DNA from: Bacteroidota bacterium
Lineage (GTDB): Bacteria > Bacteroidota > Bacteroidia > Chitinophagales > Chitinophagaceae
Length of the DNA: 64,000 nt
NCBI GenBank assembly: GCA_026391415.1
Contig: JAPLEL010000098.1
Span: forward strand, 1,162-65,161
Reading direction: 5' to 3'
Shown here piece after piece: positions 16,781-35,391 of this stretch (within the stretch, counting starts at the first letter, position 1; each line of letters begins with the position of its first letter). Made by a program: the position numbers and the translations under genes. Under the pieces are notes generated by a model. That model had not been told where the DNA came from. It made no database searches and saw only the letters and a program-made list of their open reading frames with translations.

Positions 16781-16818
16781 TAGTTTTACACATTCAAACA
16801 ACGCATCAACAAATAGTT

Positions 16819-17283
16819 ATGGCCAACATTAAAACACTTGGAAAGCGAAAAAGAATTGCTTTGGTTGCACACGACCACAAAAAAATCGACCTGATTGAGT
16901 GGGCGGTGTACAACAAAACAGAATTGGCCAAGCACGAGTTGTTTGCAACAGGCACTACCGGAAAACTATTAGAAGAAGCACTTGATAGACCAGTAAAAAA
17001 AATGTTGAGCGGACCACTAGGTGGAGACCAACAAATTGGTGCGATGATTGCGCAAGGAGAAATTGATATCATGCTTTTTTTCTGGGATCCAATGGAAGCC
17101 CAACCACACGATAGCGATGTAAAAGCTTTATTAAGACTCTGTGTTACCTGGAATATTCCAATGGCCTGTGATAGGGCCACAGCAGACTTTATAGTGACCT
17201 CACCGTTTATGCACGATGAATATTTTGCAGCTCAACCCGATTATACTGGCTATTTAAACAGGCCTGTAAAAGACGAAGATTAA
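16819..17283 (+). CDS. mgsA: methylglyoxal synthase
   Basis: IALVAHDHKK, ATGTTG, GPLGGDQQIG and PHDSDVKALLRL are all MgsA hallmarks. Confidence 0.93.
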   Translation: MANIKTLGKRKRIALVAHDHKKIDLIEWAVYNKTELAKHELFATGTTGKLLEEALDRPVKKMLSGPLGGDQQIGAMIAQGEIDIMLFFWDPMEAQPHDSDVKALLRLCVTWNIPMACDRATADFIVTSPFMHDEYFAAQPDYTGYLNRPVKDED

Positions 17284-17286
17284 AAA

Positions 17287-18501
17287 CTATTCAATTACAG
17301 CAGGAATCAGGTTTTTATTTCGCATTTTTTGTAAACCGAAAAAGAAAATAAGCACCGCCAATATTCCAATGGCTGCTTCTCCTATAAGCATATAGCGACT
17401 ATTAAATTTGTCGTGCGTAAAACCATCAAAGGCAATCATTAATACAACGGGTAAATTGCCCAAAGAGCTTATTAATGAATATTTAGTAGCTGCGTTTTTT
17501 TTTCCAATTGCAAATAATATAATTGCGGTAAAAGCCGCATTCATTAAACCCAAACAAAACGCGTATACAGACACCCCAATTATAAAGAACAGCGATTGCA
17601 TAGGACAAAGGGCCATTAAAAAAGTAACCAAAGCACAAAGCGTACCACAGCCCAAATAAGACTTCCAAACCCCCCATTTATCTACAACTAAGCCACCCAC
17701 CAAACAACCCGTTAAACCCATCAATCCATTTACTACCCCGTTAACCAAAGCAACGGTATTGGCGTTGGTTTTCCAGTCTTGTGCTATTGCAGACCAAATA
17801 TTTGAGGCGCCCCCCGTACCAATTGGGGCAAGTATTAAAATAATTATAAACAACACTACCGGCACCTTTAACATAGCAAACAAATTTTTACCAAGCGCCA
17901 ATATTTCTTCATGAATTGTTTGTTGTAGTGAACTTTTCAGGTCTGGTATAAAAAAAATTGCAGCGCCCAAAGCCACTGAAATAGCACACATAATTATCCC
18001 AGAAGCCCCCGAACCATAATGGGTTAAAAGCCAAAGACCAGCACCACCTCCTGCACCAATTCCCAAAATCATTCCGCCTTGTAAGCAACCCGATGCAAAC
18101 CCTTTTCTGCGCTCCTCAATACTTTTTGCCATAAACCCACTTACGGGCAAAAACAAAAAATTCGAGGCTATTTGAGAGATAAAAACAATAATGGTTAGCA
18201 GTGTAATGCCCTTAATGGTGAAAGGGGTTGTAGCTAAAACCAACAGCGCTCCAATTGTAGCAAGCAGGCTTATGATATACCATTTGCGCAAACTAAGCGT
18301 GGTGTCAACAATTGGCCCAAATACAAACCGTAACATACTAGCCGACGCGCCAACAGCAACAACTTCGGCGGTTTGGCCAACAGAGAAGCCGTTTTGGATT
18401 AGTTGGTAAGGAAGCGCAACAGATACAAAGCCTGAACTAATTCCAAAAGGAATGATCAGAAAAAAAATAAAAAATGGGTTGATAAATTTTTGTGGGTTCA
18501 T
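17287..18501 (-). CDS. MFS transporter (AmpG-like)
   Basis: About 12 hydrophobic segments. The N-terminal region (GPIVDTTLSLRKWYII) resembles AmpG/PAT-type MFS proteins. Confidence 0.7.
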   Translation of the reverse strand: MNPQKFINPFFIFFLIIPFGISSGFVSVALPYQLIQNGFSVGQTAEVVAVGASASMLRFVFGPIVDTTLSLRKWYIISLLATIGALLVLATTPFTIKGITLLTIIVFISQIASNFLFLPVSGFMAKSIEERRKGFASGCLQGGMILGIGAGGGAGLWLLTHYGSGASGIIMCAISVALGAAIFFIPDLKSSLQQTIHEEILALGKNLFAMLKVPVVLFIIILILAPIGTGGASNIWSAIAQDWKTNANTVALVNGVVNGLMGLTGCLVGGLVVDKWGVWKSYLGCGTLCALVTFLMALCPMQSLFFIIGVSVYAFCLGLMNAAFTAIILFAIGKKNAATKYSLISSLGNLPVVLMIAFDGFTHDKFNSRYMLIGEAAIGILAVLIFFFGLQKMRNKNLIPAVIE

Positions 18502-18554
18502 TTGTTTTTATCAGAATAAATTAAGTAATCCCGATTTTGTTTTACAATATAGCC

Positions 18555-19343
18555 CTATTCCGTCCATAAACTACCACAAGAATAAGTTTTTGCGTGTCCA
18601 CTAATAAAAACCCTGTCCTCTTTGTTTTCACAGAAAAGGGTACCAAACCTTTCTGAAACCTGACAGGCGGTTAGTATGTTTTTATTAAGCTTATCGGCCC
18701 AAAAAGGGATTAAAGAACAGTGAGAAGAACCAGTAACATGGTCTTCTAAAATAGAGGCTTGCGGTGTAAAAAATCTGGAAACAAAATCGCAATGATCTCC
18801 AACGGCGGTTACAATTACCCCGCCCACCCCTAAATTTATTCGGTCTAAAAACTGTCTATCGATTTTAATTTTTCTCACTTCGGTTTCATTGTTATACACC
18901 AACACAAAGTCTCTTGATTTCAACACTTCTTTGGGTTGAATATTCAGCGCGTTCTGAATATTTTCCGGCAAATTATTGGGCGTTGGCATTCTTGAGGGGA
19001 AATCCATTTTGTAAAGATCCTGTTCTACTAAAACGGTTAAATCGCCACTAAGCGTTTCAAAAACAATCGTATCGCTTTTGTAGTTAAGAATTGTTTTTAA
19101 GCAATGAACTGTTGCAAGTGTAGCATGGCCACACAAGTCCATTTCAATCTCGGGTGTAAACCAACGTAAATGAATTTTGTTGCCCTTGTCTACAAAAAAA
19201 GCGGTTTCAGGAACAGCGTTTTCTTTGGCTATTTTCAACAATATTTCGTTTGATGGCCACTCGCTAAGCGGAACAACACAGGCAGGGTTTCCACCAAAGG
19301 TTTTTTGGGTAAAAGCGTCAATTTGATAGAGGTCTAATTTCAT
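18555..19343 (-). CDS. PhzF family isomerase
   Basis: The N-terminus YQIDAFTQKTFGGNPACVV and the overall length are typical of the PhzF family. Confidence 0.85.
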   Translation of the reverse strand: MKLDLYQIDAFTQKTFGGNPACVVPLSEWPSNEILLKIAKENAVPETAFFVDKGNKIHLRWFTPEIEMDLCGHATLATVHCLKTILNYKSDTIVFETLSGDLTVLVEQDLYKMDFPSRMPTPNNLPENIQNALNIQPKEVLKSRDFVLVYNNETEVRKIKIDRQFLDRINLGVGGVIVTAVGDHCDFVSRFFTPQASILEDHVTGSSHCSLIPFWADKLNKNILTACQVSERFGTLFCENKEDRVFISGHAKTYSCGSLWTE

Positions 19344-19415
19344 AATGAGGGTTTAAAGATTATTTCTTCAATGTTGTGCCCTAATTACACAAAACCTTTT
19401 TTATAGGCAGGCCAA

Positions 19416-19829
19416 TTAGAGTCTAGAACACAGTTCATTTGGAGTCAAAACAAGTATTTCACATGCTTTAAAATCTTTTACATTTCGAGTTACTATACAG
19501 TCCATTTTATCAATAGATGTTGCGCAATAAATTTGTATAGAATCTTCAAAGTCCTTTTGCTTTGACCTTAAGCCTTTTGTAAGCACTTCTGTGTCAACTG
19601 AAATTATTGTCATATATTCAATTAAGCCTAAAAGGGTTTTACGAAGAGAACTATCATCTATAAACTTCTTTAATAAATAATAGGTTGTTGCTATGGAATG
19701 AGATGAAGCAAAAAGTTTTACTTTCTTGTTTTCTGATGCGTTGAAAATTTCAACAGCATATTTGCTAAAAGGCTTTCGATCGGCTAACAGATCCACCAAA
19801 ATATTAGTATCAACGAAAATCTTTTTCAT
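19416..19829 (-). CDS. PIN-domain toxin (VapC-like)
   Basis: The N-terminus FVDTNILVDLL carries the PIN acidic residue. There is a 4-nt overlap with the upstream small antitoxin ORF. Confidence 0.8.
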   Translation of the reverse strand: MKKIFVDTNILVDLLADRKPFSKYAVEIFNASENKKVKLFASSHSIATTYYLLKKFIDDSSLRKTLLGLIEYMTIISVDTEVLTKGLRSKQKDFEDSIQIYCATSIDKMDCIVTRNVKDFKACEILVLTPNELCSRL

Positions 19830-20068
19830 AAGTGTTTTTTCTCCAAATAGTTTTGTAACTCCTTCTTTTCATCGAAGCCTTTCGGAAGCTTAACTGCCCC
19901 AATTAATTTTTTTAACCTTGGAGAAATGTGTTGAGTGCTATTATCTTGAGTTAATGTGTCAAGATACTGTTCAATAAGTCTAGAAAGGCTTCTACCAGAA
20001 ACTTTAGCATAGGACTTTGCCCGCTCAATAACATCTTTCTCAACTGTGAGAGTGAGTTTAGTTGTCAT
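19826..20068 (-). CDS. antitoxin of the PIN toxin (DUF6364-like)
   Basis: 80-aa ORF from the ATG at 20068 (MTTKLTLTVEKDVIERAKSYAK...), translationally coupled to the PIN gene. The longer track ORF runs into a remnant of another gene. Confidence 0.7.
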   Translation of the reverse strand: MTTKLTLTVEKDVIERAKSYAKVSGRSLSRLIEQYLDTLTQDNSTQHISPRLKKLIGAVKLPKGFDEKKELQNYLEKKHL

Positions 20069-20113
20069 AGTACGTGTGTTTTTTTTAAAGATACGTACTA
20101 TGACAACTAAACT
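20055..20113. promoter_or_regulatory. perfect 21-bp inverted repeat spanning the antitoxin start codon
   Basis: AGTTTAGTTGTCATAGTACGT (20055-20075) is the exact reverse complement of ACGTACTATGACAACTAAACT (20093-20113), with a 17-nt spacer. The ATG at 20068 lies inside the left arm. Confidence 0.5.
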
Positions 20114-20132
20114 ATATGTTTTCATAATACTA

Positions 20133-20342
20133 TTTTTTCTCGTTAAAATATTTTATTCTCAAAGCTTCAGCTCTTTCAATTTCTGCTTTTGGGGTTTTGT
20201 CAGTTCTCTTTATGAAGCCATTTGACGAAACTACAATTGTATTTTGTCTATCAGATTTGTCCCAAAATGCAAACAATCTGATATATTGCTTATTATATAA
20301 AGTTCTAAATTCCCAAATTTCTCCATCAAGTTTTTTAAATAA
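20133..20342 (-). pseudogene. 5'-truncated remnant of a HigB/RelE-type (Gp49-like) toxin gene
   Basis: The stretch 20107-20344 aligns by eye at high identity with 24184-24421. The remnant encodes the last 70 codons (LFKKLDGEIWEFRTLYNKQYIRLFAFWDK...KYFNEKK). An in-frame TAA at 20343-20345 lies directly upstream and there is no start codon. Confidence 0.8.
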
Positions 20343-20375
20343 TTACATTTTCTCTAATGTATATGCTACAAAATA

Positions 20376-20735
20376 TCACAATACAATAAAATACAGAATT
20401 GCAATTTTTTGTTGACTTCTTGGTGAACCGTCAATTCGGCCAACAATATTATAATTGCCATCTTTAATTGTGTTACCGTCAATTCGGCCAACAATATTAT
20501 AATTACCGTCTTTAATTATGTTACCGTCAATTCGGCCTATAATATTATAATTACCGTCTTTAATTATGTTACCGTCAATTCGGCCTATAATATTATAATT
20601 ATTATTTTTCACAATATCACCGTCAATACGCAATTGGATATTATAATTTCCATCTTTTACCGTAATTGATTGCGACACTGCGGAGAAACCAAAAAGTGTT
20701 ACTAAAAGAAGACTAAGAAAAATAGTTTTTTTCAT
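20376..20735 (-). CDS. secreted tandem-repeat protein (16-aa KDGNYNIxGRIDGNxI repeats)
   Basis: Signal peptide MKKTIFLSLLLVTLFGFSAVSQS followed by about 5 in-frame 16-aa repeats. The C-terminal tail is non-repeat and may be a truncation read-through. Confidence 0.65.
   Translation of the reverse strand: MKKTIFLSLLLVTLFGFSAVSQSITVKDGNYNIQLRIDGDIVKNNNYNIIGRIDGNIIKDGNYNIIGRIDGNIIKDGNYNIVGRIDGNTIKDGNYNIVGRIDGSPRSQQKIAILYFIVL
20427..20666. repeat. 48-nt tandem repeat, 5 units (coding)
   Basis: Unit starts (ACCGTCAAT...) occur at 20427, 20475, 20523, 20571 and 20619, an exact 48-nt period. Confidence 0.9.
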
Positions 20736-20883
20736 TTTATTATAATTTAAGTTTTGCCTACTTCAAGTTTTTAGGTCTTGTTCGGCATATTCTGACCCGA
20801 TATTATTTTTTGGACTATTCTCTGACTTTTCTTAGTCAGGTTGATTCAGTGGCTTTTGTCTTAATCTTGTTTATTAATATTAC

Positions 20884-20963
20884 CCATAACGGTTTGCGCG
20901 TAGGCGATGTTGTCTTGTGTAGCGCCTGCGGCAAGGCAATATTGCTTACACGCTGTAATAAGC
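20884..20963 (-). repeat. attC-like imperfect palindrome, site 1 (short type)
   Basis: Ends CCATAACGGTTTGCG ... CGCTGTAATAAGC, with the right core degenerate. The inner stem is TTGTCTTG/CAAGGCAA around the conserved loop GCGCCTGCGGCA. It lies 3 nt from the stop of 20967..21395 and is homologous to site 5. Confidence 0.5.
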
Positions 20964-20966
20964 AGA

Positions 20967-21395
20967 TTAACCTCTAAGGCAATTTTTCAAATCAAACTTC
21001 AGGACAGAGGAAAAACAATTACCATCTTCCTCATCAAAGTCTGGCTTGCTAATTCTCCAACATTCTGATTCTTCAATATTAAAAATAAATACCTCTTTCA
21101 ATGAGCGAATTTCTTTAATTGCCTTTTTTACTTTTTTTATATCTGAATTCCAGCTTCTATTTCTAGTTACTTCTATGATTATCTCTGGTTGATTCCATGT
21201 ACTTTCTCTCTTTTTAACTGAAATATCCGGAATTATATAACCGTCTTTTAGATCTTCATTTCTTAACACTACTTCTGGTGCTACTTTAAATTCGTATTGC
21301 AATCCCCTACTTTGTAAATGCCTACGAATGTGATAAATAAAATCTGAAATCACTTCCTGATGAAGGGGGATGTTGTAACCTGAAATCTGAGACAT
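20967..21395 (-). CDS. small PD-(D/E)XK-like protein (Uma2/DUF820-like)
   Basis: Pattern YIIPDISV ... PEIIIEVTRN ... KKVKK ... EVFIFN resembles the D...E-x-K core and layout of Uma2-family endonucleases. This is motif-level evidence only. Confidence 0.4.
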   Translation of the reverse strand: MSQISGYNIPLHQEVISDFIYHIRRHLQSRGLQYEFKVAPEVVLRNEDLKDGYIIPDISVKKRESTWNQPEIIIEVTRNRSWNSDIKKVKKAIKEIRSLKEVFIFNIEESECWRISKPDFDEEDGNCFSSVLKFDLKNCLRG

Positions 21396-21518
21396 ATATT
21401 TAGTTGTTTATTTGCTTGTAGCGTGTGTTAGCAGAAGTTTGTTGGATTTTATTTCATACTTCTATTAATCCTCAACGACTGGTTTCGAGCGTCGAGAGTG
21501 TAGTTCTTTTTGTATTTC

Positions 21519-21650
21519 TGCTAACGGTTTCGGTCTTGGCGAAGTGGGGGATTTAGAAGCACAAATGTTCGGTTAATCACTAATGTTGTTAGAAGTACAA
21601 ATGCTCAATTTAGCAATTCTGCCCCCATTTTGCCAAACCTTTGTTAGCGG
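21519..21650 (-). repeat. attC-like imperfect palindrome, site 2 (long type)
   Basis: Ends TGCTAACGGTTTCGG ... CCTTTGTTAGCGG. The arms pair with bulges (GGCGAAGTGGGGG / CCCCCATTTTGCC). The TAA stop of 21644..22426 lies inside the GCTAAC core on the minus strand. Confidence 0.5.
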
Positions 21651-22426
21651 TTCGTTGTTTTTTGTTTTGTTGTATTAAATCTGTATGAAAGTCCCAATGA
21701 TATATAGTTTTTTGGTGCATTTTCAGTAAGTCCAAAACCTCCTGAAATGTCAGCCAAAATGTCGTTTTTTATTAAATATGTCAAACCGCAGTCAAATCTA
21801 TGGTCTGCCTTGTTTTCTGCTGGTAAAAATCCATATAATTCAGTATAACAACCAATTTTTTCTGTCAAACTAAAACCTGTAGTTAATGTGTAGATATAAC
21901 TATGTTCCGCATTTTCGCCATTCCATTCTGCTCCTAAATTATAAGCAAGTGATATTTTTTCTGTCAATGTGTGTTGCATTGTAAACCTAAAAGAAGGTGC
22001 AATATGTTTCGTCTGAAATTCTTTACTGCTAATATTTGAAGTTGTAATATGTCCAATAAATGAAGTTTTTGGAATAAATCCTTTTTCTTCAAATAGTGAA
22101 GTTTTAAATCCAATCGTTATTGGTAAAAGCCCCGTATTTGTATTTCCGTTTGTTTTTTCTGAAACCAATTCTGTAATTAGTCTTAATTCAAACTTTTCAT
22201 TAATTCCATATTTCCATAATGTTGAAGGATAATTATATGACTTTTGGTTTTGGTCAAAATTTTCAATGGTAAAACCATTTTCAATTTGAATGTATTTTTT
22301 GGGTGTAATAAATGGACACTCTGTTTGGTCGGGTCGGTCTAACTGAATTGCAGGCAAACTTTGTCCATATAGGTTGTCAATAGTTGTTCCAAAGCATATT
22401 GCGAAATGAATAAAATATTTTGCCAT
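21644..22426 (-). CDS. outer-membrane beta-barrel, MetA-pathway-of-phenol-degradation-like transporter family
   Basis: The N-terminal LDRPDQTECPFITPKKYIQIENGF motif and beta-barrel-like repeats resemble that outer-membrane family. Confidence 0.6.
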   Translation of the reverse strand: MAKYFIHFAICFGTTIDNLYGQSLPAIQLDRPDQTECPFITPKKYIQIENGFTIENFDQNQKSYNYPSTLWKYGINEKFELRLITELVSEKTNGNTNTGLLPITIGFKTSLFEEKGFIPKTSFIGHITTSNISSKEFQTKHIAPSFRFTMQHTLTEKISLAYNLGAEWNGENAEHSYIYTLTTGFSLTEKIGCYTELYGFLPAENKADHRFDCGLTYLIKNDILADISGGFGLTENAPKNYISLGLSYRFNTTKQKTTNR

Positions 22427-22480
22427 TTTAATGTTGTATTTCAGTTTTACGTTGTCTGTTTAGGTGTCGTTTTACAATGA

Positions 22481-22615
22481 CCGCTAACGTTTTGCAGCTA
22501 AAAGAAGTTGGCGATTTTTACCACAAATGTTCATACGAAGAACCAATGTTAAAGATAGCAAAAAATGTCAAACGAAGCGATAAGCCACCGCTTTTGCAAA
22601 CCCAATGTTATGGGC
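22481..22615 (-). repeat. attC-like imperfect palindrome, site 3 (long type)
   Basis: Ends CCGCTAACGTTTTGCAGC ... CTTTTGCAAACCCAATGTTATGGGC. It shares internal motifs with sites 2 and 4 (GAAGTTGGCGA, TACCACAAATGTTC). Confidence 0.5.
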
Positions 22616-22690
22616 TGGCATATTTCCAAATGTGGTTTTAATTATTAGCTAAAATCTTTTGTCGTGGTATAGAAAAACGACTAGAATAAT

Positions 22691-22876
22691 ATGAGTAAAG
22701 TTCAAAAAATTTGGGTTGTAACAAAACTAACAAAACGTTCCACGCTGATTGACATTCTGTTTAGTGCAGATATGAAACGAATGGAATTACAGTTTAAGGG
22801 AGGCTTGTCTGGAAGCGAAATTATCGGTAATTTACAACGAAAACCGAAGCCGAAAAAGTTGCTAAAATGGCGTTAA
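22691..22876 (+). CDS. hypothetical small basic protein upstream of fic
   Basis: 61-aa ORF on the same strand as the Fic gene. No recognisable family; coding status uncertain. Confidence 0.3.
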   Translation: MSKVQKIWVVTKLTKRSTLIDILFSADMKRMELQFKGGLSGSEIIGNLQRKPKPKKLLKWR

Positions 22877-22948
22877 TAAAAGCCGGTGCAATTAACAAGT
22901 TTTAATTAGTTGGCGGATTAATTCCGACAACTTTAAAAAATATTTATT

Positions 22949-23737
22949 ATGGGAAAACACCTAAAATTAATATCGGTTGAATATTTGCATGAATATTCAA
23001 ATAAAGTAAAAGTTGATTGGTTTGAAGTTTTTAATAAGCTAAAATCCAAAACTCAATTTTCAATCGAGGATTTTGAATATTATATTATATCATCATCTCT
23101 TTATTCGTCAAAAATTGAAGGTAATAGCCTTGATGCTAATAGTTTCTTTAGAAATCGAGGTAAGAAAACATCGCCTAAAAAGAAAGAGGTACAAGAAATC
23201 GAAGCGCTTATGGAAGCACATAAATTTGCTTCTGAAAATAAATTAAATAGAACAACTTTTTTAAAATGTCATTTGATACTATCAAAAACTTTATTACCAG
23301 TTAAAGAAAGAGGTGTTTTAAGAAAAGAACAAGTTGGTGTTAGAGATTCTAAAACATTAAAACCTGTTTATTTAGCGGCAGAACCTCAATTTCTCAAGGA
23401 AGAATTTAGTAAACTGTTTGACGATATTGATGAATTATTAAAAAGAGAATTAAGCCATAAAGAAATATTATATTTTGCGTCAATGATTCATATATGGTTA
23501 GCTAAAATACACCCTTTTAGTGATGGTAATGGAAAGTCTGCACGATTATTGGAAAAGTGGTTTTTAGTTTCAAAATTGGGTCTTTCTGCATGGTCAATTA
23601 ATTCTGAAAAATATTATTGGGATAACCGTCCCGATTATTATCAAAATATTGCTCTTGGATATAATTATTATGTTCTTTATTGGAACAGATGTATACCATT
23701 CTTGTTAATGTTGCCAGAAGCTATGCGGCTGTCCTAA
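22949..23737 (+). CDS. Fic family protein (class II, internal inhibitory helix)
   Basis: Fic motif HPFSDGNGKSAR (nt 23510-23545) and an N-terminal inhibitory motif SSKIEG matching [ST]xxxE[GN] (nt 23105-23122). Confidence 0.85.
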   Translation: MGKHLKLISVEYLHEYSNKVKVDWFEVFNKLKSKTQFSIEDFEYYIISSSLYSSKIEGNSLDANSFFRNRGKKTSPKKKEVQEIEALMEAHKFASENKLNRTTFLKCHLILSKTLLPVKERGVLRKEQVGVRDSKTLKPVYLAAEPQFLKEEFSKLFDDIDELLKRELSHKEILYFASMIHIWLAKIHPFSDGNGKSARLLEKWFLVSKLGLSAWSINSEKYYWDNRPDYYQNIALGYNYYVLYWNRCIPFLLMLPEAMRLS

Positions 23738-23744
23738 TCATTTG

Positions 23745-23880
23745 CCCATAACGTTCCGCCGCTTCATGAAGTGGCGAACTTCGTAACAGCATATTTTCCA
23801 CTAAGAAAATATTTCTTGCGAAAGAAAAATGTGATTTTACCACATTTTTCGCCATTTCTTGAAACGGCTGTTATGCGTTC
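23745..23880 (-). repeat. attC-like imperfect palindrome, site 4 (long type)
   Basis: Ends CCCATAACGTTCCGCC ... ACGGCTGTTATGCGTTCGGC, with an internal hairpin GTTCCGCCGCTTCATGAAGTGGCGAAC. It lies 10 nt from the HigA-like stop and 7 nt from the Fic stop. Confidence 0.5.
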
Positions 23881-23890
23881 GGCAATTTAT

Positions 23891-24202
23891 TTACAGAATT
23901 GCAACTTTTTGATTTAGCAACTCAACATTGAAATTTACCTTTGCATTTAGTGCTTTGAAAACTTTCATTATTGTGTCAAATCGTGCATCAGTTAAGCTAT
24001 TTTCAATTTTCGAAATTTGTGCTTTTTTGACACCAACTAACTCGCCTAATTGCTCTTGAGTTAAATTTCTGTCTTTACGAATTTGCTTGATTGTTTGGCC
24101 AATAAGTTCAAGCTTTAATTCATTTTCAAAAGCATCTCTATTTTGAGTTCCTTTCTTTCCAACGAATTTATCAGTTACTTCATCTAAACTATATGTTTTC
24201 AT
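23891..24202 (-). CDS. XRE-family HTH antitoxin (HigA-like)
   Basis: HTH segment RKDRNLTQEQLGELVGVKKAQISKIENS. It lies 4 nt downstream of the toxin gene, the toxin-first order typical of HigBA. Confidence 0.85.
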   Translation of the reverse strand: MKTYSLDEVTDKFVGKKGTQNRDAFENELKLELIGQTIKQIRKDRNLTQEQLGELVGVKKAQISKIENSLTDARFDTIMKVFKALNAKVNFNVELLNQKVAIL

Positions 24203-24206
24203 AATA

Positions 24207-24545
24207 TTATTTTTTTTCGTTAAAATATTTTATTCTTAAAGCTTCAGCTCTTTCTATTTCTGCTTTTGGAGTTTTATCTGTTTTCTTTATAAAACCATTT
24301 GATGAAACTACGATTGTATCTTGTTTGTTGGACTTGTCCCAAAAAGCAAGTAATCTGATATATTGCTTATTGTACAAAGTTCTAAATTCCCAAATTTCTC
24401 CATCAAGTTTTTTAAATAATTCGTTATCATTTACACTTCTTGATTTCCAAATATTGTAAAGTATTTTTTCTCTTGACTTTTGATCTAAACTTTCCAAAAA
24501 TTCCATTACTGGTTCAAGAAATTCAACTTTGAATTTATATTCCAT
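24207..24545 (-). CDS. type II toxin, RelE/HigB superfamily (phage Gp49-like)
   Basis: 112 aa, with WEFRTLYNKQYIRLLAFWDK typical of Gp49-like killer proteins. It is paired with the HTH antitoxin. Confidence 0.8.
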   Translation of the reverse strand: MEYKFKVEFLEPVMEFLESLDQKSREKILYNIWKSRSVNDNELFKKLDGEIWEFRTLYNKQYIRLLAFWDKSNKQDTIVVSSNGFIKKTDKTPKAEIERAEALRIKYFNEKK

Positions 24546-24630
24546 TTGATGCTTTTAAATTATTTTGGGTAAAGATATAAGTTTCCTTTTTAAGAAACAA
24601 ATTTTCTTAGAATTTTCGGGCGGATTGCTG

Positions 24631-24714
24631 ACGCATAACGGTTTGCGTGCAGGCGATCGTAGCCCTGTGTTGCGCCTGCGGCAGGGCTATGGCGCTTGCA
24701 CGCTGTTATGCGTT
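24631..24714 (-). repeat. attC-like imperfect palindrome, site 5 (short type)
   Basis: ACGCATAACGGTTTGCGTGCAGGCG ... GGCGCTTGCACGCTGTTATGCGT. The inner stem is a perfect TAGCCCTG/CAGGGCTA around the loop GCGCCTGCGG. It lies 6 nt from the stop of 24721..26334. Confidence 0.55.
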
Positions 24715-24720
24715 CGGCTT

Positions 24721-26334
24721 TTAGTCATCGGTCAAAGGTTTTATCATATCAACATAGTTTATTGGTTTTGCTAAAACTGGAACATTGTCTAATGTTTTTC
24801 CGTGTTCAAAAATTTGCCGCCAATAATCGTAGTTCTTTTTACCTGCAAAAATTGTCCCTGCCATACCACGGTCTTTCCAAAGTGGCAATGATTTTAGGTT
24901 TTTTACGAAGTTGGTAATGTTAGTCCAAAGTTGGTCGTCAAACTTTTGTTGGAATACTGAACTTTTGTTGAATTTTTTTCCTGTGTTACTAAAATAGTTA
25001 TTAATAACATCACTTATGTAACTTAACCAACTTATCAAAATTTCTTCTTTACTCATACGATAAGAAATAAGATGATTGTCCGAAATGTCAATATCTTTTC
25101 CATCAACTATTTTGCTTTCAATTCTTGCAACACCGATTTCTGGTTGGAAATTAGAAACATAAATTTCGTCCGCAAGAATGTTTAGTAATTTAATTGCCTG
25201 GGAAATTTCTAATTCTCTTGGATTAAGCCCTTCGTCTGATTTAAAATTTATTGGTGTTGCAAGTAGTTGTTTGCTGTCAATGAAAATTGTCAAAAAAGAC
25301 TTGTCAAAAGCACTATAAGAAATTGGCAATTCTTTCGCTTTACCATCTCTGTCAATGTAGTCTTTCAATTTATTTTCATTAGCTTCTGTTATCGAATGCT
25401 TAATGCTGTCAATGATATATTTTTTAATATTAGCGTTGTCACCTTTAAAATAGTCTACCAATTTTTGTTCAGAAAACGTAAAATCATCTTCTTTAAAACT
25501 ATGGTCTTCTTGATATTTTTTTATTCGTTCGTAATATAGTGTGTTATTTAATTGTCGCATTACCGATTTGTCAAAAGCTATTTGGCTTAAAACACTTCCA
25601 GCATTTGTGTTTGTTTCTGTCAACCTGTCGATATCAGGATCAATAAAAACTCTAATTAAAATTCGTTTGTTGCCCAATAAAATTTGGGCTACCGCTTTAT
25701 GTTGTCCATCGAATATTTTAATTTTATTGTTTTCAACACGTCCTAAACTTAAATGCAACTGGGGATTTTTCTTATCGAATTCCTTTACCAGTTTGCTAAT
25801 ACTGTTATTTATTCCCCTTGGATTTATTAATTCATCGTGATAGATGTATTCAATTGGAAATGAAATGAAGCAGGTTTTTTCATTTGATAAAAAGTCTGTG
25901 TGAACTTCTGTTTCATAAATTTTGTTGTCGCCTAATTCAGAAAAACTGTATGAAAGTTTATCTCCTTTTATTGTAAACTTGAAGTCATGCTTTGAGCCGC
26001 TGTAAGCAACTAAAAGTTGTTTTAATGATGCAGATTTATTTTCTGCTTGTAATGTGTCCTCTTGTATTTTTTTAAGTTTGTAAAGAGTCCGAGCTATTTT
26101 CAAATCAGCGTCTTGTTTTGACTTATTACAACTTTCGTGGGTTACTGCAAAATTCTCTTCACTGTCTTTACCTTTATTAGCCAATGGAGTAATATGGTCA
26201 ATATTTGTCGTGTGAAGTTTTAGGTCTAACGGTTCATTACAAATGAAACATTTGCTGTTTTGAATCTTCCATAATTTCTCAGTCAACTGGTCGTAGTCAA
26301 CTGTCGCTAATGATTTTAAATATTTTGATGCCAT
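24721..26334 (-). CDS. HNH endonuclease fused to a DGQHR/ParB-like (DndB-like) domain
   Basis: N-terminal HNH motif (CFICNEPL...IDHITPLANKGKDSEENFAVTHESCNKSK, nt 26116-26250). A central motif KIFDGQHKAVAQILLG (DGQHK at nt 25696-25710) resembles the DGQHR/DGQQR motif. The long C-terminal region was not assigned. Confidence 0.7.
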   Translation of the reverse strand: MASKYLKSLATVDYDQLTEKLWKIQNSKCFICNEPLDLKLHTTNIDHITPLANKGKDSEENFAVTHESCNKSKQDADLKIARTLYKLKKIQEDTLQAENKSASLKQLLVAYSGSKHDFKFTIKGDKLSYSFSELGDNKIYETEVHTDFLSNEKTCFISFPIEYIYHDELINPRGINNSISKLVKEFDKKNPQLHLSLGRVENNKIKIFDGQHKAVAQILLGNKRILIRVFIDPDIDRLTETNTNAGSVLSQIAFDKSVMRQLNNTLYYERIKKYQEDHSFKEDDFTFSEQKLVDYFKGDNANIKKYIIDSIKHSITEANENKLKDYIDRDGKAKELPISYSAFDKSFLTIFIDSKQLLATPINFKSDEGLNPRELEISQAIKLLNILADEIYVSNFQPEIGVARIESKIVDGKDIDISDNHLISYRMSKEEILISWLSYISDVINNYFSNTGKKFNKSSVFQQKFDDQLWTNITNFVKNLKSLPLWKDRGMAGTIFAGKKNYDYWRQIFEHGKTLDNVPVLAKPINYVDMIKPLTDD

Positions 26335-26381
26335 ATTTTTTTTGTTTGATTTTGTTGTCGTTTGTTTGTTTTATTAAGCTG

Positions 26382-26586
26382 ATGCATAACGGACAGGGCT
26401 TGCTGCTGTGCTGGTATTTTATAATGTCCAGCCCGGAACCGCTGCTGATTGAAAAACTGAAGTTGAAGTTAACAACAAAAAGCTGAACATTGAACGTCGA
26501 GCCCGGACTACTGCTGATAGCGAACAAAAAGATGAGGATTTATTCGTCAGCCAGCATAGCAGCAAACCCCCTGTTGTACGTTCGCC
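26382..26586 (-). repeat. attC-like imperfect palindrome, site 6 (extra long, internal direct repeats)
   Basis: TGCATAACGGACAGGGCTTGCTGCTGTGCTGG pairs with CCAGCATAGCAGCAAACCCCCTGTTGTACG. Internal direct repeats AGCCCGGAACCGCTGCTGAT and AGCCCGGACTACTGCTGAT. About 200 nt long, above the usual attC size. Confidence 0.4.
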
Positions 26587-26651
26587 CTTCGTCTTGGTGT
26601 GTCAAACTAAATACTGTGTCCAATGAAGTAGGGTGTGTCCCGGAAGCGTTG

Positions 26652-26729
26652 GCACAAGGCAGGCTCTTTTGCAAGGTTAGCTTTTGTGTGTCGGCTTTGT
26701 GTGCATTGCAAATGTGCCTGCCTTGGTGC
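26652..26729. other. conserved structured element, copy A (extended hairpin; RNA or ssDNA)
   Basis: Outer stem GCACAAGGCAGGC/GCCTGCCTTGGTGC (13 bp, one bulged G). Inner TTTGCAA/TTGCAAA stem and an apical loop TTAGCTTTTGTGTGTCGGCTTTGTGTG that is shared with copy B. Confidence 0.5.
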
Positions 26730-26856
26730 GTTGGCTAATACTACTGCATCATTGCGTTTATTTTTTTCTGCGACTCGTCCTTAAAACACAACCTGTAATT
26801 CAAAGTCATGGTCTGCCCATTTAAGTAAAAACTTACAAAGATAAAATTGTCTTAAA

Positions 26857-28536
26857 TCATCGTCCGATAACTAAAATTTTTTCACTAAATTCTTCTTTTG
26901 AAATGGCAAGTTTATTTTTAATCTTAATTTTATAGTTATACACCGTTTGAGGGGAGTAGTGCAAAAGCTCAGCTATTCTGGCACTATCATTAATTCCTAA
27001 TCGAATTAGTGCATAAATTCTAAGTTCAGGGGTTAAAATATCTTTTTCTTTAGGATAGATACGTTCGTTTTCAATAAGCATTTCATTAAACTCTTCTATA
27101 AAAGTTGGAAAAATACTCAAAAAAATGGCATCGAAATTCTGAAAAAATTCTTTTAGTTCATTATTAAGTGAATTCTCAAGTGATAATATTCTGATTGCTT
27201 CATCAGTTCGTTGGGTTTTTAACATTCGTTGAAGCCCTAAACGATAGTCGTCAAATTTTCGAATATATAGGGAGTACATTCTGAATACATATGCTATATA
27301 TGCTTCTTTTACATGTTCTGATTCAGAAATTTTATTATTAAGAATTAATAACTGGTTATTCATTGAATTCAATTCCGAGTTTTTTGTTTTCAAAAAACTT
27401 TCGGCTTTAAAAACTTTTTTAAATTGAACATAAATTAAATAGATGGTAATTAGTAAAACAATTACTAATAAAGAAATTATCCATAAATATCGTGTTAGCT
27501 TTTTTTGATTCTCAAGCATTTCCCTGTCGTAACTTGCTGCTATAACAGGTAAATCTTTAGAAATTTCAACCATCCGAAATCTTGCTTTAGCAAATAGAGC
27601 ATCCTCCATACCACATTTCATGTAATTGAAAGCTCTTTTAAATTCACCTTTTTGATATAAAATCAACGCAAGTTTTCTTAGGGCTATGTAGCTTTTTACA
27701 GAATTTTCAATATCCTCAATGGCGGCCATTGCAAGAAAAGTAGTTTGTTTATCTAAATTGCCTACAGCCTCGTAGGCAAGAGCTGTAGGGTAATATAATG
27801 CGGCTGAATCATTATGACTATCATTTTTTTTATACGCAGACAGTGTAGATGATAGTGCCATTTGGGGATTACCATCTTCTAAATATTTACCTGCTAAAAT
27901 AACTTTATAGCTGGTAGAAGAGGAGTCAAAAAAGCCCAGCAATGTGTCTTTTAACGAATTGATATACTGTTTATACTTAAACCCCTCCTCTTCTGAAACA
28001 GCACTATTGTAAAGCAGAAGGTAAGTAGAATGATATACATGATAATAATAGGGTAAAGCTTCCGGGGCTAATTTATCTCTTTTTATTTCCGAAAGAATTT
28101 CAAAGGTTTCTTTATACATTCCCATTTTCCCCATTACATGGGCTATACTCATATAGGCTTCGGACAATAATCCTGGAGCATTCGATTGTTGTGCTATAAT
28201 CCTCTTTTCTTTTGCAACCCGTAGTGCTCCATCTAAATTGTAATGTTCATACTCTTTAAATAATTTATCGAGAATTTTAATTTTTTTTTCTGGAAGGGGT
28301 TCTGAAGCTAATGCTAATTTCAAGCTATCTAATCTATTTTCTTTTTGTGTGCTAAATTCGATTTTTTTCGAAATAGCTACATCTAGTTTCTTAATTAAGT
28401 TTTCAAAGTTTCGTTGACCAAATAAATTAAATGAACTAGCTAAAATTCCTATTGTTATAAAAAATAGACGTTTGTTCACTGGCCTTATCCCTATTAAATT
28501 AAAATCCATAAAAGTATCAGAGTTTTGGCCTATCAC
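26857..28536 (-). CDS. DUF6377-type PUL regulator (TPR-like sensor region, one TM, C-terminal LuxR-like HTH)
   Basis: Mid-protein transmembrane segment (YLWIISLLVIVLLITIYLIYV) and a C-terminal HTH (LTPELRIYALIRLGINDSARIAELLHYSPQTVYNYK). The start may be the ATG at 28509. Confidence 0.7.
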   Translation of the reverse strand: MIGQNSDTFMDFNLIGIRPVNKRLFFITIGILASSFNLFGQRNFENLIKKLDVAISKKIEFSTQKENRLDSLKLALASEPLPEKKIKILDKLFKEYEHYNLDGALRVAKEKRIIAQQSNAPGLLSEAYMSIAHVMGKMGMYKETFEILSEIKRDKLAPEALPYYYHVYHSTYLLLYNSAVSEEEGFKYKQYINSLKDTLLGFFDSSSTSYKVILAGKYLEDGNPQMALSSTLSAYKKNDSHNDSAALYYPTALAYEAVGNLDKQTTFLAMAAIEDIENSVKSYIALRKLALILYQKGEFKRAFNYMKCGMEDALFAKARFRMVEISKDLPVIAASYDREMLENQKKLTRYLWIISLLVIVLLITIYLIYVQFKKVFKAESFLKTKNSELNSMNNQLLILNNKISESEHVKEAYIAYVFRMYSLYIRKFDDYRLGLQRMLKTQRTDEAIRILSLENSLNNELKEFFQNFDAIFLSIFPTFIEEFNEMLIENERIYPKEKDILTPELRIYALIRLGINDSARIAELLHYSPQTVYNYKIKIKNKLAISKEEFSEKILVIGR

Positions 28537-28714
28537 CTTAAATAGGTCGCATAAATCTATAACTTATTAAATTAAAGTAACAGTTTTAAAACAGCTTACT
28601 TGGCAATTGGTAAAAATTCAGATACCTACTTTTTTGTATCGTGGTGTCCTTATTTGAAAATTTAAGGCGTATTAATAACGATAATGCTTAGCATAATACG
28701 TAAAGGCAACTAGA

Positions 28715-30025
28715 TTAATTTACCCCAAGTGCAGTTACTGCATTATTAATAAATGACGAATAATAACTAGACACATCTTCCCAGCGGTAAAAAGGCCAAA
28801 TATTTGAATAAACTTCCGGAATACGAACCTCTTTTTCGTTATAAACAAACTTTGCCAATATTTCTTTTGACTTCTTATTTCTAAAAAAAATAATTTGCAA
28901 ATTAGCTGCCATTGGAGCTACTTCAAAATCTCTCCAATAGCGATAATAATCTAAAGGATTAGTTACACTTGCATATGTATTCTCAATGTGCAAAAGCATG
29001 GCTAAAGGAATGATATTGCCATCATGACCAAATCTTATTGAAGAGCCATGTCTGTTAGTTTTAATGGCAGAGTCTGCCTTGTTTATAATGTCCTGTAAAA
29101 GGGGTTTGGCATTATCCATCATAATTCCTTTATTTACCGCTGCATTAGAATATTGAACATACAAACTATAATTTTTGCATTGCCATAAATTAAAAAGTTC
29201 TTCTTTTTCGAACAAATCAAATAGCGAAATATTCAATTCCGTATTTTGCAGGTTACCTGCAATACTAAATAAATCGAACATAAACTCTGTAGCATTTAGG
29301 CTGTCTGGTAATTGACTGAAATTTATGAATAGTGATTTCAACAGCCTTTCAGGCTTAACATGTTCTTGTACAAATTGGTTATATTCTTTCCGCCAAGTAT
29401 CTTGTGAGTACCTAAAATCAACTGCTTTTTTTGTGTGATGATTTAGATATTGCATATGACTTTCATGAGCATTTGGATTAATGATTAAACTTTTGTTGTT
29501 CTGTTGAAGTTGACTACAAAAAATATTCATACTTTTTACACATCGCCCTACAGTGGTAGACACAGCAGTAATATTGGCTCCATCAGAAAAAACCTGGGGG
29601 TAATTTTTATACATCCGCTGTGCTATATTTTTTATTTGAGAGATACCTAGCGGCGTTAGCTGACCTGCTTTACCATTTACTGAATCACATATCTTTTCAA
29701 TGCGTTTTAGGGCTCCTTTGCCCAAACTTGTAAGATTATTACTATCCTTAGCACTCTTAAATAATTTCAGCACATTAAAATATTCATCCTCACTAGTCAA
29801 ATATCTTGAGCCATGACGGCCAAAATGGCTGATGTAAAAAGGATGATAGCCTTTGGGTGCAGGAGTAACCTTATTTGCATGGTATGGGTAGGCAAAGTTC
29901 ACTCCTCCGAATTTTTCCGGAGAAGTGAATATTTCCTCTTTAGTAGTTTGTGCCTTTGAAACATTTTGCACTGCAACCAAAATCCAGCATAATATTATGG
30001 ACTTAAATAAGAAATTTAATTTCAT
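28715..30025 (-). CDS. secreted histidine phosphatase, branch 2 (histidine acid phosphatase-like)
   Basis: Signal peptide, the RHGSRY catalytic motif (HFGRHGSRYL) and a downstream GHD motif (RFGHDGNIIPL). Confidence 0.8.
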   Translation of the reverse strand: MKLNFLFKSIILCWILVAVQNVSKAQTTKEEIFTSPEKFGGVNFAYPYHANKVTPAPKGYHPFYISHFGRHGSRYLTSEDEYFNVLKLFKSAKDSNNLTSLGKGALKRIEKICDSVNGKAGQLTPLGISQIKNIAQRMYKNYPQVFSDGANITAVSTTVGRCVKSMNIFCSQLQQNNKSLIINPNAHESHMQYLNHHTKKAVDFRYSQDTWRKEYNQFVQEHVKPERLLKSLFINFSQLPDSLNATEFMFDLFSIAGNLQNTELNISLFDLFEKEELFNLWQCKNYSLYVQYSNAAVNKGIMMDNAKPLLQDIINKADSAIKTNRHGSSIRFGHDGNIIPLAMLLHIENTYASVTNPLDYYRYWRDFEVAPMAANLQIIFFRNKKSKEILAKFVYNEKEVRIPEVYSNIWPFYRWEDVSSYYSSFINNAVTALGVN

Positions 30026-30073
30026 GAAAAATGAAGTTTTAAATTAAAAGGCATACTTACTCTATAACGTTAT

Positions 30074-31759
30074 TTATCTGAAATTTGGATTTTGTTGCAA
30101 ATTTGGATTAACAGTAAACTCGTCTTGTGGAATAGGGTATAACTTAAACTTATCATCAACATCCCTACCTATAAAGTTATTGGCTGTGCCATCGCTTCCC
30201 TTCCAGTCCCAGTTGTAATTTTTTGTGTATTTGTTAAATCTAATCAGGTCTGGTCTTCTTACACATTCAGTGTATAATTCTCTTGACCGTTCGTCTAAAA
30301 TAAAATCCAACGTAAGTTGTGCATCGGTTATTCTACCACTAGTTGCACTTCCAAAACTACCCGATAGATAAGCCCTGTCCCTTATTTCATTAACATAACC
30401 CAATGCTTCAAGCCGTGTGCCTCCACCAGCTCTCAATATTGCCTCTGCTGCCATAAGGTAAGCGTCTGCTGTTCTAAACATTGGGTAGTCAACATAACTG
30501 TATGTACTACCACCTACGGCCACATCCTGCCTGTTTTTATATACATTACGCCATTTTATAGTGGCGTAGCCATTCATAAAATCGTTTTGAAATGCAGTAT
30601 TTGGCCTCCAGGTTTCTTTGGTATGGCCGTTAGTAAAAAATTGTGCTCTTTTATCTTTTTTTGTATCGCCCCATGTATCTGTTGTAATAAACAATTGGTC
30701 GGCGGCATCAAATTTGTTTACCAAATTTGTTTTTACTCTTGCATTGCCAAATCCTCTTGCACCAATACCTGTTGTATAGAAGTTGCTCATCCTGCCATTA
30801 ATTAGTGCTTTTATTAACCAACTGGTACCTGCACTATTAATTGTAAATTCTCCGTCTTGTGGCAGAGGCCAAATGATTTCTTTACATGTATGATTATCTG
30901 CTAAAAAAATATGTCTGTAATCTGATGCTAATGGGTATTGGCCATTATTTATTACCATCTTCGAATAATCATATGCTTTTTGGTATTCATTTTTACCAAC
31001 CATTGCTTCGGCATTCAGGTATATTCTTGATAACAAAAACCAGGCAGCAACTTGGTCAACCCGTCCATAAACATTGGCTCCCGGAGCTTTCATTTTAGTT
31101 TTAATATCTTCCAATTCGCTAACTGAGTAATTATAAATTTCTTCCCGGGTTCTCTGCTGCGGTATAGTGCCTACTGGCATGGTTTCATCAATAAAAGGCC
31201 CTGAGCCAAATAAATCGCAAACCATACTATAGCAGTAGCTACGAATAAACCTGGCTTCGGCTCTATAGAATCCTACATTGCCTTGCATTTTATCAAACAA
31301 ACCCCTGCTTCTCAACTTTTCATCAGAAGCCTCCCTTAAGAACTCATTGCAATAAGCAATAGTCATATAAAGCCTGTAATAAGAGTATTTAATTATAACG
31401 GTTGAAGGGTTCCAATTCATAAACAAAAAATCTCTTGAACCTTGTGAGCTTCCTGCATGCAAAGCAATCTCGTCTGTAGCACATTCCTGTAGATAAAATA
31501 TTGCCCTTGTATAGCCGCTATAACCTACATCAAGTCCACCAAGGTCTCCATCTCTGTCCGGGCCATCTTGTCCGTTTAAAATTAGGGAGCCGTATATTTT
31601 TCCCAATACACTCTTATACCCTTCTTCCGTTTTATAAATTTGCTCTGCTTTAAGTACCCTTTCGTTGAGGGGTACTGTATCAAGGTCTTTTACACAGGAA
31701 GTAATTATCGTTGTAAAAAAAACGAAATAGCAAAAGCGAATTATTAATTTATGTTTCAT
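30074..31759 (-). CDS. susD: SusD/RagB family nutrient-binding outer-membrane lipoprotein
   Basis: Lipoprotein signal with Cys (IITSCVKD) and SusD-like length and composition. It lies directly downstream of a SusC-type gene. Confidence 0.9.
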   Translation of the reverse strand: MKHKLIIRFCYFVFFTTIITSCVKDLDTVPLNERVLKAEQIYKTEEGYKSVLGKIYGSLILNGQDGPDRDGDLGGLDVGYSGYTRAIFYLQECATDEIALHAGSSQGSRDFLFMNWNPSTVIIKYSYYRLYMTIAYCNEFLREASDEKLRSRGLFDKMQGNVGFYRAEARFIRSYCYSMVCDLFGSGPFIDETMPVGTIPQQRTREEIYNYSVSELEDIKTKMKAPGANVYGRVDQVAAWFLLSRIYLNAEAMVGKNEYQKAYDYSKMVINNGQYPLASDYRHIFLADNHTCKEIIWPLPQDGEFTINSAGTSWLIKALINGRMSNFYTTGIGARGFGNARVKTNLVNKFDAADQLFITTDTWGDTKKDKRAQFFTNGHTKETWRPNTAFQNDFMNGYATIKWRNVYKNRQDVAVGGSTYSYVDYPMFRTADAYLMAAEAILRAGGGTRLEALGYVNEIRDRAYLSGSFGSATSGRITDAQLTLDFILDERSRELYTECVRRPDLIRFNKYTKNYNWDWKGSDGTANNFIGRDVDDKFKLYPIPQDEFTVNPNLQQNPNFR

Positions 31760-31778
31760 AATAATGACAAGTTTAGAT

Positions 31779-35319: not shown

Positions 35320-35391
35320 GCATTTTTAGCTCTTTGCAAGGTTGGCTTTTGTGTGTCGGCTTTGTGTGCCTTGCAATGTGCTAAAAATAGC
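35320..35391. other. conserved structured element, copy B (extended hairpin; RNA or ssDNA)
   Basis: Outer stem GCATTTTTAGC/GCTAAAAATAGC has a different sequence from copy A but keeps pairing and a bulge. Inner stem TTGCAAGG/CCTTGCAA; apical loop TTGGCTTTTGTGTGTCGGCTTTGTGTG. Confidence 0.5.

Follow-up and report, generated by a model that had tools for sequence, protein, structure and literature searches.

The 64,000-nt stretch analysed here (the window; contig JAPLEL010000098.1 of assembly GCA_026391415.1, Chitinophagaceae) is Bacteroidota-type DNA with SusC/SusD genes and a GC content of ~36%. Between 19416 and 36440 it carries a tyrosine recombinase gene, an attI-like insertion point and a row of cassettes bounded by long imperfect palindromes, and this segment is very probably a chromosomal platform for gene capture of the integron type, in a Bacteroidota genome resembling Sediminibacterium. 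Six of these palindromes (sites s1 to s6) had been noted in an original prediction that read 20884-26586 as an integron-like cassette array; the results support their forming the distal part of a complete integron-like platform that extends from 19416 to 36440. The array does not end at 26586, as had been proposed, but extends to 35459, and the recombinase gene (35574-36440), the attI-like junction (35459/35460), the 9-kb first cassette and the terminal toxin-antitoxin cassette (19416-20097) are additions to the original prediction. Of the 12 open reading frames (ORFs) at 19416-35459, ten run in the direction of the recombinase gene. GC content from 20 to 29 kb is 0.31-0.34, except for 0.37 in one 1-kb window (26-27 kb), as compared with ~0.36 for the whole window.

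The features are given below in the order in which they follow the recombinase gene. An arrow marks a crossover point, and box scores are the number of variable inner-box bases, out of four, that match the start of the same cassette.

35574-36440, - strand: tyrosine recombinase gene, 288 amino acids, IntI/XerA-like, in the same direction as the cassettes
35455-35475, - strand: attI-like insertion point (top strand ...TATATACTAG↓TTGTAC), crossover between + strand positions 35460 and 35459, 114-116 nt past the recombinase stop codon
26390-35459, - strand: cassette 1, 9,070 nt, ending in s6, its start TTGTAC being complementary to the s6 inner box GTACAAC; genes for a SusC-like protein (31779-34733), a SusD-like protein (30074-31759), a histidine phosphatase (28715-30025) and a SusR-like regulator (26857-28536)
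24639-26389, - strand: cassette 2, HNH-domain protein (24721-26334; Pfam HNH) and s5, box 4/4
23752-24638, - strand: cassette 3, Gp49-like toxin (24207-24545) and helix-turn-helix (HTH) antitoxin (23891-24202), assigned by Pfam, and s4, box 4/4
22488-23751, - strand: cassette 4, reversed ORFs, namely a 61-residue ORF (22691-22876, + strand) and a Fic gene (22949-23737, + strand; Pfam Fic), and s3, box GTTATGG, 4/4
21525-22487, - strand: cassette 5, Phenol_MetA_deg-like outer-membrane protein (21644-22426; Pfam) and s2, box GTTAGCG, 4/4, stop codon inside the inner box
20890-21524, - strand: cassette 6, Uma2-like small nuclease-fold protein (20967-21395; weak Pfam Uma2 match) and the decayed s1
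20098-20889, - strand: cassette remnant without a site, comprising a beta-flower repeat protein (20376-20735; Pfam Bflower_2) and a 241-nt partial Gp49/HTH copy (20104-20344)
19416-20097, - strand: terminal cassette, DUF6364 antitoxin and PIN toxin (Pfam), common to all related strains, its own 5' end replaced in the window

The sites form a structured, strand-specific family

A scan of one genome per species with a gapped pattern derived from the ends of the sites returned 36 loci, against roughly 8 expected by chance on our own estimate. All 36 are in the Bacteroidota, Chlorobi or Ignavibacteriota, and include Flavobacterium, Chitinophagaceae, Pedobacter, Runella, Chryseotalea, Prosthecochloris and others. 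A covariance model, R1, was built from 35 aligned external sites with the window sequences excluded. Against the 64-kb window R1 finds exactly six full-length sites, all on the + strand (E 2e-37 to 1e-7), and these are the same six palindromes that had been noted. Their refined limits, from box to box on the + strand, and their R1 scores are as follows.

20884-20964, + strand: s1, 29.3 bits, decayed, with a degenerate right end
21519-21649, + strand: s2, 98.4 bits
22482-22613, + strand: s3, 66.1 bits
23746-23876, + strand: s4, 114 bits
24633-24711, + strand: s5, 58.5 bits, folding energy (dG) -32.3
26384-26579, + strand: s6, 31.8 bits (E 1.7e-8), an attC-like hairpin, unusually long

An R1 search with filters off found no further sites in 18500-37000. 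A partial match at 8347-8445 (model positions 29-126, E ~4e-4) has no boxes and lies outside any array, and is treated as a chance match. The right-end motif TGTTRNNNGTTCG occurs four times in the 64 kb, every time at a site and only on the + strand. The common end motifs that had been ascribed to all six sites need a correction at the right end of s1, which is degenerate (CTGTAATAAGC in place of CTGTTA...); the division into a short (s1, s5) and a long (s2-s4) subfamily is real, as is the compensatory change between the inner stems of s1 and s5. The end motifs ATAACGGTTTGCG (3 mismatches) and ATTRCNNNYWAACG (1 mismatch) are not enriched relative to shuffled sequences, and are therefore unusable as sole site markers. 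No relevant Rfam family was found for the sites at gathering and E-value thresholds, and there is no attC family in Rfam.

Folded as single-stranded DNA (ssDNA), s4 (z = -5.9) and s5 (z = -6.3) are clearly non-random, and s6 (z = -2.3) and s2 (z = -1.8) moderately so; all four fold into long imperfect hairpins that run end to end and are closed by the AAC...GTT box. R1 also located 137 further sites within the 36 external loci, in co-oriented arrays with a spacing of 0.4-2 kb and up to 13 sites per 8 kb. Altogether the family of recombinase and sites was recovered in 36 species-level genomes, more than 580 metagenomic stretches, a complete fish-pathogen genome, and plasmids. Site length from box to box is 79-196 nt with a median of 131, and s6, at 196 nt, lies above the attC range of 57-141 bp.

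Compensatory changes are present at every predicted pair of the consensus stem among the 35 external sites. With a hand-drawn structure, 82% of stem cells are paired, compared to 36-46% when the partners are slid, and double changes occur in 19 of the 20 stem pairs. Fourteen nucleotides (CTGTTATGCGTTCG) are invariant in the seed alignment by construction, and statements on conservation therefore rest on 108 non-seed sites. Of the 96 longest inter-site ORFs, 89 are encoded on the strand complementary to that of the model, so the model describes the non-coding, or bottom, strand (+ in the window); with this placement of the ORFs we rejected the idea that a 'TA' 12 nt before TAAC represents stop codons of same-strand ORFs. 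The bottom-strand layout is 5'-xyzw-AAC / GTTYY / stem ... loop ... stem / T / GTT-w'z'y'x', in which AAC/GTT is invariant in 99-102 of the 102 non-seed sites. One stem position has a fixed G.T wobble (98 of 103 sites) and another a C.A mismatch (53 of 102), and outside these two fixed columns there are 141 G.T as against 46 A.C oppositions. Of 132 sites, 103 fold more stably as the bottom strand, and the mean difference is 1.64 kcal/mol (p = 4e-12); in canonical attC sites the bottom strand is favoured by 2.12 kcal/mol (PMC5027507).

Two further sequence elements lie at the site margins. A conserved motif is present just past the crossover at cassette starts, reading TAnnATTRC on the bottom strand and GYAATnnTA on the coding strand (e.g. 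24624-24632 and 22473-22481 in the window), and GTTCG is found just outside the inner box in ~40% of sites, family-wide. An additional helix outside the boxes, seen in s4 as TTGCC/GGCAA, was rejected as a family feature, since it does not hold for the family at large.

Cassette boundaries and strain variation

If cassettes are circles opened at G↓TT, the variable bases of the inner box should match the start of the site's own cassette, at the upstream neighbouring site. The match to the own cassette start is 4/4 in 82 of 98 pairs (mean 3.72 of 4), versus 9 of 133 (mean 1.77) for the in-situ partner and 9% (mean 1.79) for random pairs. Within the window s2-s5 obey this rule, as does s6, whose GTACAAC pairs with TTGTAC at the attI-like junction; the s1 inner box is mutated to GTAATAA and matches its own start at only 2/4 positions. 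This pattern fits circular cassettes joined at G↓TT, to judge from the box sequences. The RYYYAAC...GTTRRRY logic that had been proposed for these sites is upheld, the inner box matching the own cassette start and not the in-situ partner. R1 with filters off finds no internal site in cassette 1, and this together with the TTGTAC/GTACAAC complementarity means that 35459-26390 behaves as one cassette. Two details of the original prediction are borne out at this level: the TAA of the ORF at 21644..22426 lies within the s2 box (21644-21646), and the Fic gene (22949-23737, + strand) is the only reversed cassette.

The window was compared with three related loci (L135, L136 and L139), and the recombinases of the four strains are 98-100% identical. 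The flanks are common to the related strains: uvrB and a prolyl isomerase gene lie at one end, and PhzF, MFS and MGS genes at the other. Between these flanks L135 has only the DUF6364/PIN pair, L139 has two other cassettes and then DUF6364/PIN, L136 has a third set, and the window has 15.4 kb. Homology ends at 35458 and resumes at 20097, such that the variable region is 20098-35459 and includes the 9.07-kb first cassette with its SusC/SusD gene cluster; the whole of the cassette 1 segment is missing from L135, L136 and L139. On the coding strand all four strains read ...TATATACTAGTT and then diverge, with ACTAGTT followed by GTAC in the window, ATCTGC in L135, ATGTGG in L136 and ATCAGC in L139. 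Cassette insertion beside the recombinase gene, with crossover at G↓TT, is therefore seen in all four strains. The DUF6364/PIN cassette provides a second view of the boundary: its start, TTATCTGCTATTTGG, is joined in L135 to the attI-like site, after ACTAG, and the same start in L139 is joined to an attC-like site, ...AAAAC G↓TTATCTGC. The joins in L135 and L139 are an integron cassette boundary. Exact-protein look-ups of the flanking PhzF-like, SusR-like and HNH genes gave only short same-strain contigs, which break at hairpin centres (24679-24681, 20064, 26318 and 26649) and are therefore uninformative on variation.

These comparisons bear on one alternative, that the palindromes are dispersed structural repeats (REP/BIME, MITE-like or terminators) lying between genes without any cassette mobility. 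The sites are indeed intergenic imperfect palindromes situated just past stop codons, as such repeats would be. They are nonetheless absent from the other 48 kb of the window and occur elsewhere only as co-oriented arrays beside one recombinase family; together with the lack of an Rfam match, the own-start pairing of the boxes and the exact cassette-wise differences between close strains, this already contradicts the dispersed-repeat explanation, which we regard as extremely improbable. The genome-wide dispersal that the original prediction had named as a way for its integron reading to fail is not what we find, since the sites are clustered in the window and form co-oriented arrays in 117 other loci, and the cassette-wise variation that it had anticipated among related strains falls exactly at the G↓TT boundaries.

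A recombinase linked to the arrays

The recombinase was first located by tblastn with an IntI1 query, which served only as a lead; similar genes were indicated in this way beside the arrays at L047, L049 and L019, with weaker fragments at L037 and L021. The gene product has Phage_int_SAM_4 and Phage_integrase Pfam domains, and its catalytic residues R145, K170, H235, R238, H261 and Y270 are invariant. Its score against NCBIfam NF040815 (XerA) is 232.9 (cut-off 220), and against TIGR02249 (integron integrase) it is 213.9, below the cut-off of 265 and with the match in two stretches. Alignment to XerA (5hxy) runs end to end, whereas that to VchIntIA (2a3v) is split, with query residues 13-187 corresponding to 3-177 and 211-286 to 243-318, leaving 23 query residues opposite 65. 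By these curated models the recombinase falls between XerA and IntI. Its nearest named relative, at 98% identity, is from a Sediminibacterium metagenome-assembled genome. The L037 gene (Bacteroidales) was not accepted as a clean recombinase, as it is broken by insertion sequence (IS) elements and fused to a transposase-like tail.

Linkage was assessed in 80 metagenomic loci with 46-73% identical recombinases, oriented with the gene on the + strand. They contain 77 R1 sites, all 77 on the - strand, opposite to the gene; 75 of these lie in the 148 kb downstream of the recombinase and two in the 351 kb upstream. Where at least 1.5 kb of sequence follows the gene, 22 of 23 loci have a site, and where at least 3 kb follows, 13 of 13 do; the first site is usually 0.4-1.4 kb past the recombinase stop codon. 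In the complete Flavobacterium psychrophilum genome (CP176802.1) the recombinase gene is followed by 10 sites, and in a Chryseobacterium plasmid by five.

This association counts against the reading that the window holds an ordinary cassette array (CALIN) served by a canonical, I2-containing IntI located elsewhere in the genome or on a mobile element, with the neighbouring recombinase a bystander or an Xer-type housekeeping enzyme. Besides the linkage in 22 of 23 loci and its constant orientation, the insertion point lies 114-116 nt past the recombinase stop in four strains, the sites are without the extrahelical bases that I2 contacts (PMC5027507), and no IntI-type gene was found in the 64-kb window by tblastn with the IntI1 query. 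That arrangement would account for the AAC/GTT boxes, G↓TT junctions and bottom-strand folding, which are all canonical integron features, and complete canonical integrons have been reported in Chlorobi and Ignavibacteriae (PMC9024848), where these sites also occur; overall we judge it quite unlikely.

It is also unlikely that recombination proceeds on duplex DNA in the manner of Xer/dif or pdif, with the palindromes serving another purpose such as transcription termination or RNA stability. Such a mechanism would suit a recombinase that is a simple two-domain protein, lacks I2, exceeds the NCBIfam XerA cut-off and finds its best, end-to-end alignment in XerA, a duplex-DNA enzyme, and most sites have AACGTT, a palindrome as duplex DNA, at their outer end. 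The site architecture is not that of duplex substrates, however: the conserved AAC and GTT boxes are 80-190 nt apart and meet only when the strand folds, the stems covary although their sequence is not conserved, and both the G.T pairs and the folding energies favour one strand, which is non-transcribed for 89 of 96 ORFs. The own-cassette box rule is moreover a prediction of a folded R''/R' pair. XerA/XerCD-dif systems, pdif modules and IMEX differ further in that the cassette boundaries here are covarying hairpins of 80-196 nt with no 28-bp dif-like core flanking modules, and the recombinase gene is array-linked as opposed to acting at a single chromosomal dif.

Two side observations come from plasmids. 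On the Acinetobacter indicus plasmid p80-1-2-tetX3 (locus L143, 6001-8163) a 5'-truncated, 47% identical homologue precedes tet(X3) by 190 nt, in the same direction, and the same gene is found on many Acinetobacter, Klebsiella and Aeromonas plasmids. R1 with filters off found no attC-like site near this homologue; the arrangement may point to acquisition of tet(X3) from a platform of this kind. On the Chryseobacterium plasmid NZ_CP041688.1 (locus L144) there is a group II intron at 16520-18500 (Rfam RF02001, RF00029; 5' end GTGTGCCCAGCATGGGC), inserted in the bottom strand at the inner end of a site, with the gene of that cassette on its far side, and beginning right after the ...GAAATACTGT of the site. 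As judged by sequence, this placement mirrors that of the IIC-attC introns in canonical attC sites, and its 5' end resembles those of published group IIC-attC introns.

A probable integron-type platform without three canonical signatures

Functionally the platform is an integron, with an insertion site beside a tyrosine recombinase, hairpin-ended cassettes, crossover at G↓TT, a bottom-strand bias and strain-specific cargo. Several observations weigh against such a reading. The recombinase lacks the IntI-specific I2 region, as reflected in the split 2a3v alignment and the TIGR02249 match in two pieces, and I2 is considered essential for single-strand attC recombination (PMC7790495, PMC8138268). 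Folding of both strands, which the original prediction had proposed, gave the bottom-strand preference described above. The stems have no consistent bulge or extrahelical base (L'' arm G16, T23/24), as these are defined for attC (PMC5027507). A symmetric unpaired spacer is likewise missing, since on the bottom strand five nucleotides (GTTYY) of the 5' arm face a single T of the 3' arm. Taken singly, s1, s3 and s6 are weak hairpins as ssDNA (s6 z = -2.3), and the nearest site in the window is 9 kb from the recombinase. The R1 seed consists of pattern-selected sites, by which divergent subfamilies may be missed, and its E-values are rough. With I2, the extrahelical bases and the symmetric spacer all failing, we do not class the platform as a canonical integron member; the integron-like interpretation of the original prediction is upheld as a variant lacking these three features.

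We infer the following mechanism. The tyrosine recombinase encoded at 35574-36440, with its catalytic residues intact, would insert and excise circular cassettes, and the attI-like site (ACTAG↓TT, 114-116 nt past its stop codon) would recombine with the attC-like site at the end of each cassette. Crossover would occur at the invariant G↓TT, corresponding to AA↓C on the bottom strand. The sites are most likely active as folded single strands of the non-coding (bottom) strand, and in vivo each would present an AAC/GTT box of short length, then GTTYY bulging out as 5 nt against one T, a covarying stem of ~20 bp carrying the fixed G.T wobble and the frequent C.A mismatch, and a variable loop. Circular cassettes would be the intermediates, and the cassettes may be expressed by read-through or from promoters of their own.

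Additional features of the cassettes

Homologues of cassette 3 are present in the arrays at L049, L039 and L134, and a homologue of the DUF6364/PIN cassette, flanked by sites, is also found in L049. Cassette 1 contains a hairpin repeat in two copies:

26663-26717, + strand: 55-nt hairpin repeat, copy B
35329-35381: copy A, a direct repeat of copy B (93% identity, E 1e-17)

The outer stems of the two copies differ by compensatory changes. No copies beyond these two were found in the window and none in the other loci, and there is no Rfam match. They bracket the SusC, SusD, phosphatase and SusR-like genes, which suggests that this four-gene unit was inserted into a smaller cassette.

Next to the attI-like junction, at 35476-35500, are G-rich repeats (GGGTGGGTTGGGGTGG on the coding strand), with related inverted copies at 35215-35310 at the start of cassette 1; these may be accessory binding sites. 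At the other end of the array, 20104-20344 is a 241-nt, 90% identical partial copy of the Gp49/HTH segment at 24181-24421, fused to the start of the DUF6364 antitoxin ORF. The copy replaces the normal 5' end, and the ORF is 99 residues long in the window compared to 80 in related strains. A near-perfect palindrome with 27-nt arms (93% complementary) at 20055-20113, just upstream of DUF6364/PIN and conserved in related strains, is probably a toxin-antitoxin operator; Rfam matches of 20049-20122 to miRNA precursors were discounted as chance scores of a perfect palindrome. Five 48-nt tandem repeats at 20379-20666 are coding and lie within the beta-flower (Bflower_2) ORF.

Relationship to known systems

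Canonical integrons (IntI, attI and attC, as in class 1 integrons and the Vibrio cholerae superintegron) share with this platform a tyrosine recombinase beside the insertion site, followed by co-oriented cassettes of an ORF plus a hairpin. They also share the invariant AAC/GTT, the G↓TT crossover, complementary box halves for each cassette, a bottom strand that is the better folder, and a loop of variable length. Cargo rich in toxin-antitoxin pairs and orphan ORFs, strain-specific cassette content, and a group IIC-attC-like intron that uses the bottom strand of the site are further points in common. The recombinase gene is co-directional with the cassettes, a layout known from so-called inverted-integrase integrons. 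In contrast to canonical integrons, the recombinase is short of ~42 residues that include the I2 helix region; the sites have the fixed G.T wobble and C.A mismatch in place of extrahelical bulges, a spacer of 5 nt and 1 nt rather than 5-6 on both arms, and a greater length, reaching 196 nt with a median of 131. Conserved sequence also extends into the flanks (TAnnATTRC at cassette starts and, frequently, GTTCG), and one cassette is 9 kb long and has four genes. The insertion is reported as "not fully conserved" in the integron-like subgroup of a tyrosine recombinase classification (PMC8138268).

The closest described system, as compared by its published description, is rAID-1 of the Bacteroidales, in which an XerD-like recombinase at the 5' end precedes co-directional low-GC genes, with intergenic repeats described as "reminiscent of integrons" (Ross et al. 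2019, 10.1101/471110; 10.1101/2025.05.03.651265). The rAID-1 clusters, too, vary between strains, and the phylum is the same. The rAID-1 definition of at least two co-directional low-GC downstream genes with repetitive intergenic sequences describes the window, with its six homologous sites. rAID-1 is defined in gut Bacteroidales and by orphan type VI secretion system (T6SS) immunity-gene cargo, whereas the present organism is Chitinophagaceae-like and from freshwater, and its array carries toxin-antitoxin pairs, Fic, HNH, an outer-membrane protein, a beta-flower protein and a SusC/SusD cluster. Orphan interbacterial immunity genes were not seen to dominate the cargo in a Pfam scan, a scan that was not aimed at immunity families. 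The words hairpin, attC and excision are all absent from the accessible text of the 2025 preprint (10.1101/2025.05.03.651265), and the passages of the 2019 preprint (10.1101/471110) on integrons, recombinase, rAID and repeats contain no hairpin structure, strand choice or junction analysis. We found no published description of this site family or its mechanism in a literature of incomplete coverage, such that an earlier description is possible.

Tentatively, and as a possibility that we rate at somewhat under even odds, we suggest that a phylum-wide lineage in Bacteroidota, Chlorobi and Ignavibacteria has a true integron-type cassette system with single-strand hairpin sites, which lacks both I2 and extrahelical bases and uses recombinases that resemble both IntI and XerA, that this system can move multigene units such as the 9-kb SusC/SusD locus, and that its mechanism underlies the rAID-1 immunity arrays of gut Bacteroidales. 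This would provide a concrete model for gene acquisition by rAID-1 arrays, which are abundant in the human gut. In the window, a whole nutrient-utilisation locus lies within cassette boundaries. Integron surveys list only one complete integron in Bacteroidetes proper (PMC9024848), yet the family is widespread, and therefore much integron-like capture may be invisible to tools that require an IntI-specific domain. If the suggestion is true, it runs counter to the idea that attC-type recombination depends on I2 and extrahelical bases: I2 would not be required, and the lineage may represent either the state from which integrons arose or an invention in parallel to them. In the accepted account, acquisition of the I2 helix enabled single-strand attC recombination (PMC7790495), and a natural I2-less system with attC-like logic makes this account of integron origin directly testable.

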